Shown: piece by piece, positions 2,109 to 4,219 of the stretch
Position numbering within the stretch: the stretch's first letter is position 1
Layout of the letters: every line of letters starts with the position of its first letter
IMG/VR virus record: IMGVR_UViG_2778261069_000006
Source: a virus
Lineage: Duplodnaviria > Heunggongvirae > Uroviricota > Caudoviricetes
Length of the DNA stretch: 4,219 bases
Reading direction: 5' to 3' (one strand)
Notes under the pieces: generated by a model
Databases searched by the model: none
Seen by the model: the letters and a program-made list of their open reading frames with translations, nothing else
What the model was told of the DNA's origin: nothing
Program-made: the position numbers and the translations under genes

Positions 2109-2116
2109 GGGTGAAT

Positions 2117-4213
2117 ATGGCAGTAAAGATTTCAGGTGTACTGAAAGACGGCACAGGAAAACCGGTACAGAACTGCACAATCCAGCTGAAAGCAAAACGT
2201 AACAGCACCACGGTGGTGGTGAACACGCTGGCCTCAGAAAATCCGGATGAAGCCGGGCGTTACAGCATGGACGTTGAGTACGGGCAGTACAGCGTTATTC
2301 TGTTGGTGGAGGGATTCCCGCCGTCACATGCCGGGACCATCACCGTGTATGAAGATTCCCGACCCGGTACGCTGAATGATTTTCTCGGTGCCATGACGGA
2401 GGATGATGCCCGTCCTGAGGCACTGCGCCGTTTTGAACTGATGGTGGAAGAGGTGGCGCGTAACGCGTCAGCGGTGGCACAGAACACGGCAGCCGCGAAG
2501 AAGTCAGCCAGCGATGCCAGCACATCAGCCCGTGAGGCGGCAACCCATGCGACTGATGCTGCAGGCTCAGCACGCGCAGCCAGCACGTCAGCCGGACAGG
2601 CCGCGTCGTCGGCTCAGTCAGCATCTTCCAGCGCAGGAACGGCATCAACAAAGGCCAGTGAAGCAGCAAAAAGTGCTGCTGCTGCAGAGTCCTCAAAAAG
2701 CGCGGCAGCTACCAGTGCCGCTGCGGCGAAAACGTCAGAAACGAATGCGGCAGCGTCACAACAATCAGCAGCCACTTCTGCATCCGCCGCGACCACGAAG
2801 GCGTCAGAAGCTGCCACCTCAGCCCGGGATGCGGCGGCCTCAAAAGAGGCAGCGAAATCATCAGAAACGAACGCATCCTCGAGCGCCAGTAGCGCAGCTT
2901 CCTCGGCAACAGCGGCAGGAAATTCCGCGAAGGCGGCAAAAACGTCAGAGACGAACGCCAGGTCTTCTGAAACGGCAGCGGGACAGAGCGCCTCAGCTGC
3001 GGCAGACTCTGAGACAACAGCTGCATCATCGGCCCGTGAGGCGTCCATTAAGGCAGAGGAGGCAGCAGTCAGTGCCACCGCCGCCGGAAAATCGGCAGAA
3101 AGCGCCGCATCATCCGCTTCAACAGCCACAACGAAGGCTGGCGAAGCCACTGAACAGGCCAGCGCAGCAGCGAGGTCTGCTTCCGCAGCGAAGACATCCG
3201 AAACGAACGCGAAAGCGTCGGAAACCAGCGCAGAATCCTCAAAAACGGCTGCCGCATCGTCCGCCAGTTCGGCGGCGTCATCGGCATCATCGGCGTCTGC
3301 TTCAAAAGATGAGGCGACCAGACAGGCGTCAGCAGCGAGGGGCAGCGCCACGACGGCATCCACGAAGGCGACAGAGGCTGCTGGCAGTGCGGCAGCGGCA
3401 GCACAGAGCAAAAGTACGGCAGAATCCGCAGCAACGCGCGCCGAGACAGCAGCAAAACGGGCAGAGGATATTGCATCCGCCGTGGCGCTTGAGGATGCGA
3501 GCACGACGAAAAAGGGGATAGTACAGCTCAGTAGTGCGACTAACAGCACTTCCGAGTCACTGGCGGCAACACCAAAAGCCGTTAAGGCCGCGTATGACCT
3601 GGCTAACGGGAAATACACCGCACAGGATGCAACGACAGCACAGAAAGGGATAATCCAGCTAAGCAGCGCGACCAACAGCACGTCTGAAACGCTTGCCGCG
3701 ACACCAAAGGCAGTAAAAGCAGCCAATGACAATGCTGAGAAACGTCTGCAGAAAGATCAGAACGGTGCGGATATCCCTGGCAAAGATACCTTTACGAAAA
3801 ATATTGGTGCCTGCCGTGCCTTCGGTGGGTCAGTAAGCACAACAACAGGAAACTGGACGACTGCACAGTTTATCGAGTGGCTGGATTCTCAGGGAGCATT
3901 TAACCATCCATACTGGATGTGCAAGGGTTCCTGGTCTTATGGCAATAATAAAATCATTACTGATACTGACTGCGGTAATATTCATCTCGCCGGAGCTGTC
4001 ATTGAAGTAATGGGGATAAAGTCAGCGATGACGATCCGCATTACCACACCGACCACCTCCACTGGTGGTGGAACAACTAACGCCCAGTTTACTGCAAAAT
4101 GGCATCTGAATCGATCGCAGTTTGGCATTCGAATCGATCATGATTTGGCATTCATCTCCGATCACAGTTTGGCATCACAATCGATCACGATTTGGCATGC
4201 TTCCGATCATTGA
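2117..4213 (+). CDS. stf: Side tail fibre protein Stf: conserved N-terminal domain, Ala/Ser/Thr-rich shaft, duplicated tail-fibre motif, divergent distal tip
   Basis: ATG at 2117 is preceded by the SD-like GGGGTGA (2108-2114). The track begins at the in-frame GTG 2111, but MAVKISGVLKDGTGKPVQNCTIQLKAKRNSTTVVVNT… from the ATG matches the lambda Stf N-terminus as I recall it. The frame is open to TGA at 4211-4213. The 3' end is uncertain because the last ~115 bp lie inside a 23-bp tandem DNA repeat, so the true C-terminus may differ. Confidence 0.85.
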   Translation: MAVKISGVLKDGTGKPVQNCTIQLKAKRNSTTVVVNTLASENPDEAGRYSMDVEYGQYSVILLVEGFPPSHAGTITVYEDSRPGTLNDFLGAMTEDDARPEALRRFELMVEEVARNASAVAQNTAAAKKSASDASTSAREAATHATDAAGSARAASTSAGQAASSAQSASSSAGTASTKASEAAKSAAAAESSKSAAATSAAAAKTSETNAAASQQSAATSASAATTKASEAATSARDAAASKEAAKSSETNASSSASSAASSATAAGNSAKAAKTSETNARSSETAAGQSASAAADSETTAASSAREASIKAEEAAVSATAAGKSAESAASSASTATTKAGEATEQASAAARSASAAKTSETNAKASETSAESSKTAAASSASSAASSASSASASKDEATRQASAARGSATTASTKATEAAGSAAAAAQSKSTAESAATRAETAAKRAEDIASAVALEDASTTKKGIVQLSSATNSTSESLAATPKAVKAAYDLANGKYTAQDATTAQKGIIQLSSATNSTSETLAATPKAVKAANDNAEKRLQKDQNGADIPGKDTFTKNIGACRAFGGSVSTTTGNWTTAQFIEWLDSQGAFNHPYWMCKGSWSYGNNKIITDTDCGNIHLAGAVIEVMGIKSAMTIRITTPTTSTGGGTTNAQFTAKWHLNRSQFGIRIDHDLAFISDHSLASQSITIWHASDH
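2462..3508 (+). repeat. Degenerate low-complexity coding repeats (Ala/Ser/Thr-rich shaft of Stf, about aa 116-464)
   Basis: Strong A/S/T/E/K bias in the translation with recurring degenerate motifs: AKTSETNA, AKSSETNA, TKASEAA, TKAGEAT, TKATEAA, SAAASSASSAASSASSASAS. Coding is dominated by GCN, TCN and ACN codons, which leaves the other frames on both strands free of stops. Confidence 0.8.
3509..3598 (+). repeat. Copy 1 of the conserved phage tail-fibre repeat motif (KKGIVQLSSATNSTSESLAATPKAVKAAYD)
   Basis: Direct translation. A motif of the form GIxQLSSATNSTSE…AATPKAVK is, to my knowledge, characteristic of lambdoid/T-even tail-fibre proteins. Confidence 0.8.
3641..3730 (+). repeat. Copy 2 of the conserved phage tail-fibre repeat motif (QKGIIQLSSATNSTSETLAATPKAVKAAND)
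   Basis: Lies 132 bp (44 codons) after copy 1. The protein is nearly identical, but about half the codons differ at synonymous positions. Confidence 0.8.
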
Positions 4214-4219
4214 TTGGCA
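4097..4219. repeat. Tandem array of 23-bp imperfect direct repeats, at least 5.3 units, truncated by the window end
   Basis: GGCAT starts at 4101, 4124, 4147, 4171 and 4194, with GGCA again at 4216 (spacings 23, 23, 24, 23, 22). GATC starts at 4113, 4136, 4160, 4183 and 4205. Units: aaaaTGGCATctgaaTCGATCGcag / TTTGGCATtcgaaTCGATCAtga / TTTGGCATtcatctccGATCAcag / TTTGGCATcacaaTCGATCAcga / TTTGGCATgcttccGATCAttga / TTGGCA…. Confidence 0.85.

Follow-up and report, generated by a model that had tools for sequence, protein, structure and literature searches.

The ends of IS21-family insertion sequences are built from several direct repeats at a 23-bp spacing, and each of these repeats includes two conserved blocks, CS1 and CS2, lying about 10 bp apart, where HTH-2 and HTH-1 of the transposase IstA contact the major groove (PMC10122671). 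Cryo-EM and biochemical work on the IS5376 IstA established that integration requires two complete repeats per end, and the IstA tetramer synapses both ends as right-handed supercoiled crossings, which are favoured by the 23-bp spacing (PMC10122671). Related DDE enzymes, likewise equipped with tandem helix-turn-helix domains, serve as the transposases of Tn7 and Mu (PMC10122671). GATC, the site of Dam methylation, is relevant to some other elements, as hemimethylated DNA is the preferred substrate for transposition of IS10 and IS50 (review PMC3878927). Hemimethylated GATC clusters are also bound by SeqA, which prefers sites that share one DNA face (PMC2691817). The original prediction for the locus described here was of this last type, namely that a cluster of regularly phased GATC sites serves as a SeqA substrate or as a Dam-dependent switch of the pap/agn43 kind.

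The analysed stretch of DNA, referred to as the window, is 4,219 nucleotides long and represents the tail end of a lambdoid prophage. Its final 127 bp, which include the GATC cluster, are very probably the left end of an ISSso4-like element of the IS21 family located in the prophage stf gene, each unit of the array being a predicted IstA site. The features of the window are as follows:

up to 1382: 3′ part of gene J
1453–2052: lom
2117–4092, + strand: 5′ two-thirds of stf, the lambdoid side-tail-fibre gene (ORF 2111–4213, start at 2111 or 2117)
4093–4219, + strand: left terminal region, very probably of an ISSso4-like IS21-family element, truncated at the window end, with five complete 22–24-bp units and the start of a sixth
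4098–4120, + strand: unit L1, AATGGCATCTGAATCGATCGCAG, the terminal predicted IstA-binding repeat, GATC at 4113, 21 nt from the tip
4121–4143, + strand: unit L2, TTTGGCATTCGAATCGATCATGA, GATC at 4136
4144–4167, + strand: unit L3, TTTGGCATTCATCTCCGATCACAG, GATC at 4160
4168–4190, + strand: unit L4, TTTGGCATCACAATCGATCACGA, GATC at 4183
4191–4212, + strand: unit L5, TTTGGCATGCTTCCGATCATTG, GATC at 4205
4213–4219, + strand: unit L6, start only (ATTGGCA...), the window ending inside the unit

The position of the breakpoint was obtained by comparison with intact stf genes. Alignments with stf in over 2,000 E. coli genomes, as well as in PhiR42_1 and other phages, reach up to 100% identity and extend no further than position 4092, and the 393 bp preceding the junction (3700–4092) are 100% identical to stf of PhiR42_1 and of many prophages. 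The intact stf of PhiR42_1 has 1,025 codons and reads ...CAGTTTAC followed, beyond the breakpoint, by CTATATTAATC (that is, CTATATT comes next), while at the same point the window reads ...CAGTTTAC and then TGCAAAATGGCATC. Since the homology to intact stf stops at 4092 and unrelated sequence follows, the array is foreign to the phage gene. The element sequence begins at 4093 with TGCAAAATGGCAT..., and a TG dinucleotide at the start is typical of transposon tips. Prophage stf is interrupted and truncated after position 4092 by an insertion sequence, and its reading frame enters the element for 40 codons until a stop codon at 4211–4213. The 30-nt junction between stf and the element had no match in IMG/VR or in the JGI metagenomes, and no record spanning it was found in the collections of complete E. 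coli genomes, phages, and plasmids.

The array proved to be mobile and multicopy. The last 127–135 bp of the window alone matched 2,473–2,885 of 5,426 complete E. coli genomes, and copies covering at least 80% of the query were present in 493–532 of these 5,426 genomes. A single E. coli genome contained the array in up to 35 places with unrelated contexts, and it was also detected in 499 plasmids of Escherichia, Salmonella, Shigella, Klebsiella, and other genera. Insertions were seen in vgrG, a fimbrial subunit gene (fimA/sfaA), transfer genes, other insertion sequences, and plasmids. As the window stops 127 bp into the element, the istAB genes, the right end, and the target duplication were read from other copies. 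In all three full copies inspected, istA starts about 230 bp after the array and is followed by istB, and both genes are annotated by NCBI as belonging to the IS21 family and the “ISSso4 family”. One of these three copies, from E. coli 99-3165, matches the window with 100% identity over the 127 bp.

The assignment of these genes is supported by profile searches, in which IstA scored 285.8 bits against NCBIfam NF033546 (IS21 family transposase, cut-off 160) and IstB 257.8 bits against NF038214 (IS21 helper ATPase, cut-off 200). The IS5376 IstA structures 8b4h and 8q4d were detectable as relatives of the IstA of the element, but the similarity to IS5376 IstA is distant (E = 3e-14 over the catalytic part). 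A much closer relationship was found with the elements that bear the NCBI name ISSso4 and occur in Shigella sonnei and E. coli: the IstA proteins of copies having an identical or near-identical array share 98–99% identity with proteins labelled “IS21-like element ISSso4 family transposase”, istB carries the same annotation, and no difference from the ISSso4-named copies was detected over the 127 bp present in the window.

The complete element is 2,639 bp long. Its left tip, TGCAAAATGG (5′-TGCAAAA..., window position 4093), and its right tip, TGCGTATTCC on the other strand (5′-TGCGTAT...), form imperfect inverted repeats reading 5′-TG...CA-3′, and the right-end units have the opposite orientation to those of the left end. 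Reading inward, the right end consists of three inverted units, TGCGTATTCCGCTCTATTCGATCACGG, ATTGGCATCGAAGTCCGATCAGCG, and ATTCGCATCCATTCGATCAACCGGG, each with a GATC, which in the terminal unit lies 20 nt from the tip. At the left end, the successive units are spaced by 23, 23, 24, 23, and 22 bp, and the sixth unit, of which only the beginning is seen in the window, runs on in full copies as TCCTGCCAGTCAC, where AGTC replaces GATC. Each unit contains block A (TTTGGCAT) and block B ((T/C)CGATCA), at a distance of about one helical turn. The two copies checked for target duplications had 6-bp repeats, GTTCAT (L001) and GTTAAT (L002). In case of the stf insertion, the right end would finish as ...AATACGCA, followed by the duplicated GTTTAC and then by stf CTATATTAATC....

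Taken together, the presence of istA and istB, the 5′-TG tips, the 23-bp repeats, the target duplication, and the multicopy occurrence identify the array as an end of an IS21-family element. The same combination is known from IS21 (repeats L1–L3/R1–R2) and IS5376 (L1/L2 and R1/R2; PMC10122671), whose ends also have 5′-TG tips and 23-bp direct repeats with two blocks about one turn apart, and where istA, encoding the DDE transposase, is likewise followed by istB for the AAA+ helper and a short target duplication is formed. However, five to six left and three right units are present here instead of two or three, and block B has a GATC core. The number of left-end units is also higher than the “usually at least two” described for the IS21 family. 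Several transposase sites per end in unequal left and right numbers also characterize Tn7, with its 22-bp TnsB sites, and Mu, with the MuA sites L1–L3/R1–R3, but the site sequences are unrelated to those of the present element and the accessory proteins are different. We concluded that the array is a real but ordinary feature of an already known kind.

The clustering of GATC itself was confirmed. The five sites start at 4113, 4136, 4160, 4183, and 4205, within the final 107 bp of the window, and the start-to-start distances of 23, 24, 23, and 22 bp agree with the phasing of about 23 bp (22–24 bp) that had been predicted. The expectation that three of them lie in the ATCGAT palindrome was also correct, as the context is ATCGATC at 4113, 4136, and 4183, while it is TCCGATC at 4160 and 4205. 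The palindrome is incidental, as it varies even between the units of this single array. The prediction that every unit carries a GATC was right for the five complete units in the window, but not for the sixth unit of the full copies with its AGTC. The suggested comparison with the rest of the window confirmed that the array is dense in GATC: it contains 39 sites per kb (5 in 127 bp) against 1.7 per kb in the remaining sequence (7 in the other 4,092 bp), an approximately 23-fold difference, and if GATC occurred at the background rate, a 96-bp span would contain at least five with a Poisson probability of about 9e-7. For the whole window no overall enrichment was seen (12 sites versus 17.3 expected from shuffled sequences). 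Tandem Repeats Finder called periods of 23 and 47 bp at the array, and the unit consensus is (T)TTGGCAT-N7/8-CGATC-N4. Thus, the local excess and the periodicity of GATC arise because the sites are part of a tandem array. The distribution in the full copy is similar: eight of the 12 GATC sites of the element are located in the two terminal arrays, where they occupy eight of the nine units, while the interior has 1.65 per kb, which is about the background level. The proposal that the sites share one face of the DNA was not supported, since 22–24 bp correspond to 2.1–2.3 helical turns, that is, to a rotation of about 35–100 degrees per step, so the clustered sites spiral around the helix.

To see how far the array is conserved, 80 loci encoding IstA relatives of 42–54% identity were collected from Gammaproteobacteria, Chloroflexota, Acidobacteriota, Desulfuromonadales, and other groups, and closer IstA relatives (55–88%) were also fetched. 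The 23-bp two-block array precedes istA in most relatives that have enough upstream sequence. Among the closer ones, every unit at both ends contains CCGATCA or TCGATCA in Enterobacter ludwigii (80%), in a 73% relative, in Citrobacter (56%), and in Sodalis ISSoEn3 (55%), and a Salmonella relative (88%), of which only the right end is visible, has the same motif there. The 63% relative, on the other hand, has GACGAACA in place of the GATC block. The Citrobacter element is also characterized by eight to nine left-end units. In the wider sample, the periodic core was GATC in 22 of 77 arrays, GAAC in 14, GACC in 11, GGCC and GGAC in five each, GAGC in two, other in three, and unclear in 15. Consequently, conservation of GATC in homologous arrays holds for most of the closer relatives (those of 55–80% identity and the right end of the 88% one), but neither for the 63% relative nor for most of the wider family.

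Block B has at least nine core variants, GATC being one of them, and the core begins with GA in 49 of the 62 classifiable arrays. In the neighbour-joining tree of IstA, the elements with a GATC core are found in at least eight separate clades, and such elements also come from Dehalococcoidia and Methylibium genomes. Conversely, cores other than GATC were found in elements of Alishewanella, Idiomarina, Alteromonas, a Vibrio, and Rahnella, all of which belong to orders that we presume to have Dam. The association between the GATC core and hosts of Dam clades was not significant (Fisher p = 0.40, a rough lineage-level count with Dam status assigned by order from general knowledge). Block B is uniform within an element and different between elements, and this constancy within and variability between elements is the signature of a recognition sequence that co-evolves with its transposase.

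By analogy with IS5376, each 22–24-bp unit would be one IstA-binding site, in which blocks A and B are each read in the major groove by one N-terminal helix-turn-helix domain, as homology with IS5376 IstA suggests. [quoted passage not shown] As GATC forms the core of block B, and the sites follow one another with the family's spacing, it reappears every 23 bp. We infer from homology that IstA of the ISSso4-like element binds the units, and the assignment of a helix-turn-helix domain to the GATC block has the same basis, while IstA probably cleaves at the terminal CA, judging from the structure and biochemistry of IS5376. Of the original prediction, the notion that phased repeats form a platform for protein binding has therefore survived, but the protein is almost certainly IstA and not SeqA or a regulator of the pap/agn43 type.

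The interpretation of the array as an insertion-sequence end can be complemented by a role for Dam. Methylation of the GATC in block B may alter the affinity of IstA, and the ends may be most active when hemimethylated after replication, as in IS10 and IS50; SeqA might in addition transiently cover the eight clustered end sites. We put this forward as a tentative possibility that is rather unlikely on the present evidence. All five GATC sites of the window, and those in eight of the nine units of the full copy, fall within the presumed major-groove recognition block, the GA step is kept in the 49 of 62 cores mentioned above, and the motif is present in every unit of the Enterobacter, Citrobacter, and Sodalis relatives as well as in the Salmonella right end. 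Methylation may plausibly influence the binding of IstA, because the groove read by the helix-turn-helix domains would contain the methylated adenines and the GA step is mostly kept.

However, GATC is only one of the at least nine variants of block B, it is present in the Dehalococcoidia and Methylibium elements and missing from those of Alishewanella, Idiomarina, Alteromonas, Vibrio, and Rahnella, and core and host showed no significant link. Moreover, as many as 35 copies of the element occur in a single genome of E. coli, a Dam-positive host. The region between the array and the start of istA in the full copy contains no GATC, and a crude scan over the left 300 bp of this copy detected no sigma-70-like promoter, which is weak negative evidence; the absence of both from this interval also speaks against Dam control. 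The resemblance to IS10/Tn10 and IS50/Tn5 consists in the location of GATC within a terminal transposase-binding sequence, here a presumed one, and in the Dam-positive enterobacterial hosts. Those elements, however, carry one GATC or two, including one in the transposase promoter, and their response to Dam was demonstrated experimentally, whereas the ISSso4-like element has eight, none seen in a promoter. A search of the literature found nothing that links IS21-family elements to Dam. The most specific form of the proposal, in which the reading of block B by IstA is sensitive to N6-methylation and the eight end sites act jointly as a hemimethylation gate on synapsis, with SeqA perhaps competing, is in our judgement doubtful.

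An epigenetic platform of the phage or the host, that is, a SeqA-bound region or a Dam switch of the pap/agn43 type controlling the neighbouring prophage gene in lysogens, is highly improbable. It shares with the known SeqA substrates (oriC and the dnaA promoter) and with pap/agn43 the clustering of GATC in a Dam-positive host, and this is the sole point in its favour. As the end of a mobile element, the array is missing from the intact versions of the prophage region and moves together with istAB, and its occurrence in hundreds of unrelated sites contrasts with the fixed control regions of phase-variable operons such as pap and agn43, in which the GATC sites lie inside binding sites of host regulators (Lrp, OxyR). 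The 23-bp phasing persists in relatives without GATC, and the rotation of 35–100 degrees between neighbouring sites fits less well with the single face assumed. Furthermore, the only adjacent phage gene is the tail-fibre gene truncated by the insertion. Unlike SeqA substrates and the pap/agn43 regions, the array has no link to a replication origin or to a phase-variable operon, and its spacing follows from the transposase site and does not clearly place the GATC sites on one helical face.

Two further readings, the iterons or centromere of a phage-plasmid and a coding repeat of the tail-fibre protein, are barely credible: short tandem repeats with an internal palindrome do look similar to iterons or parS-type sites, and ORF 2111–4213 spans most of the array, but the former is contradicted by the flanking genes being istA and istB instead of replication or partition genes, by the inverted recurrence of the repeats at the other end, and by the target duplications, and the latter by a 23-bp period that is not divisible by three and by the loss of Stf homology after 4092. 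No Rfam family reached threshold anywhere in the window, so structured RNA was not indicated either.

The array belongs to an insertion sequence and not to the phage or to the control of lysogeny. For annotation, this means that the stretch should be described as an insertion-sequence end that inactivates the stf gene of the prophage, and not as a phage regulatory array. Regarding the transposase family, the core of the recognition block shifts between lineages (GATC, GAAC, GACC, GGCC, GGAC) while the 23-bp architecture remains fixed, a pattern that helps to distinguish which ends are usable by their cognate transposases. If the Dam gate existed, it would be a multi-site counterpart of the Dam control of IS10 and IS50 in a family without a described case, and if Dam modulated IstA binding, the IS21 family would join the elements that time their transposition to replication.

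In the array at 4112–4209 of the window, analysed with Tandem Repeats Finder, 84% matches were obtained at the 47-bp period versus 72% at the 23-bp period, and the 22–24-bp units, the presumed IstA-binding sites, are closer in sequence to the next-but-one unit than to the adjacent one. Two subtypes likewise alternate across eight to nine units in the Citrobacter relative (L087, 1285–1500). Array growth seems to have proceeded by duplicating two units at a time, and a two-unit block is the size engaged by one half of an IstA tetramer.

The terminal units are not the only conserved elements of these ends. At a locus carrying a full ISSso4-like copy (L001), an additional conserved box, CCGGGAAYTTAACTYTTTY, is common to both ends and lies inward of the last unit (4118–4171 and 6554–6607). 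In marine relatives a different, A/T-rich box, TTTTCTCTTTTAAATCAAT, occupies this position and is likewise shared. One possibility is that the shared inward box is a site for a host factor or one related to IstB. In several relatives the left-end direct units are followed by two inverted unit copies (e.g., CCGAAATCGGTGATCGG), located as follows:

L006, L008 and L009: inverted unit copies approximately 95–145 bp upstream of istA
L016: inverted unit copies 70–125 bp upstream of istA

These copies may represent a pseudo-end inside the element or a site of autoregulation. In the ISSso4-like element, no inverted unit copies follow the left-end direct units.

In the prophage part of the window, G+C-rich hairpins followed by T runs were spotted by eye at 1395–1430 (after J) and 2075–2105 (after lom); on this reading, they look like intrinsic terminators on either side of the lom cassette. 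The stf product contains a long Ala/Ser/Thr-rich low-complexity region (2460–3480) with a short 9-bp tandem repeat (3273–3294), and this region gives rise to long spurious ORFs on the other strand, e.g., 2614–3732. A stretch of approximately 75 bp of stf (3701–3777) is shared at 93% identity with P2-like phages (Peduovirus, Yersinia phages), where it lies in tail-fibre genes; such a short common module is typical of tail-fibre mosaicism.

The interrupted stf (2111–4213) retains approximately 660 of 1,025 codons before the cut, and its frame runs through 40 codons inside the insertion sequence to a stop. The insertion displaces the receptor-binding C-terminal part together with the downstream tfa gene; therefore, the prophage with the cut stf probably does not make functional side fibres.
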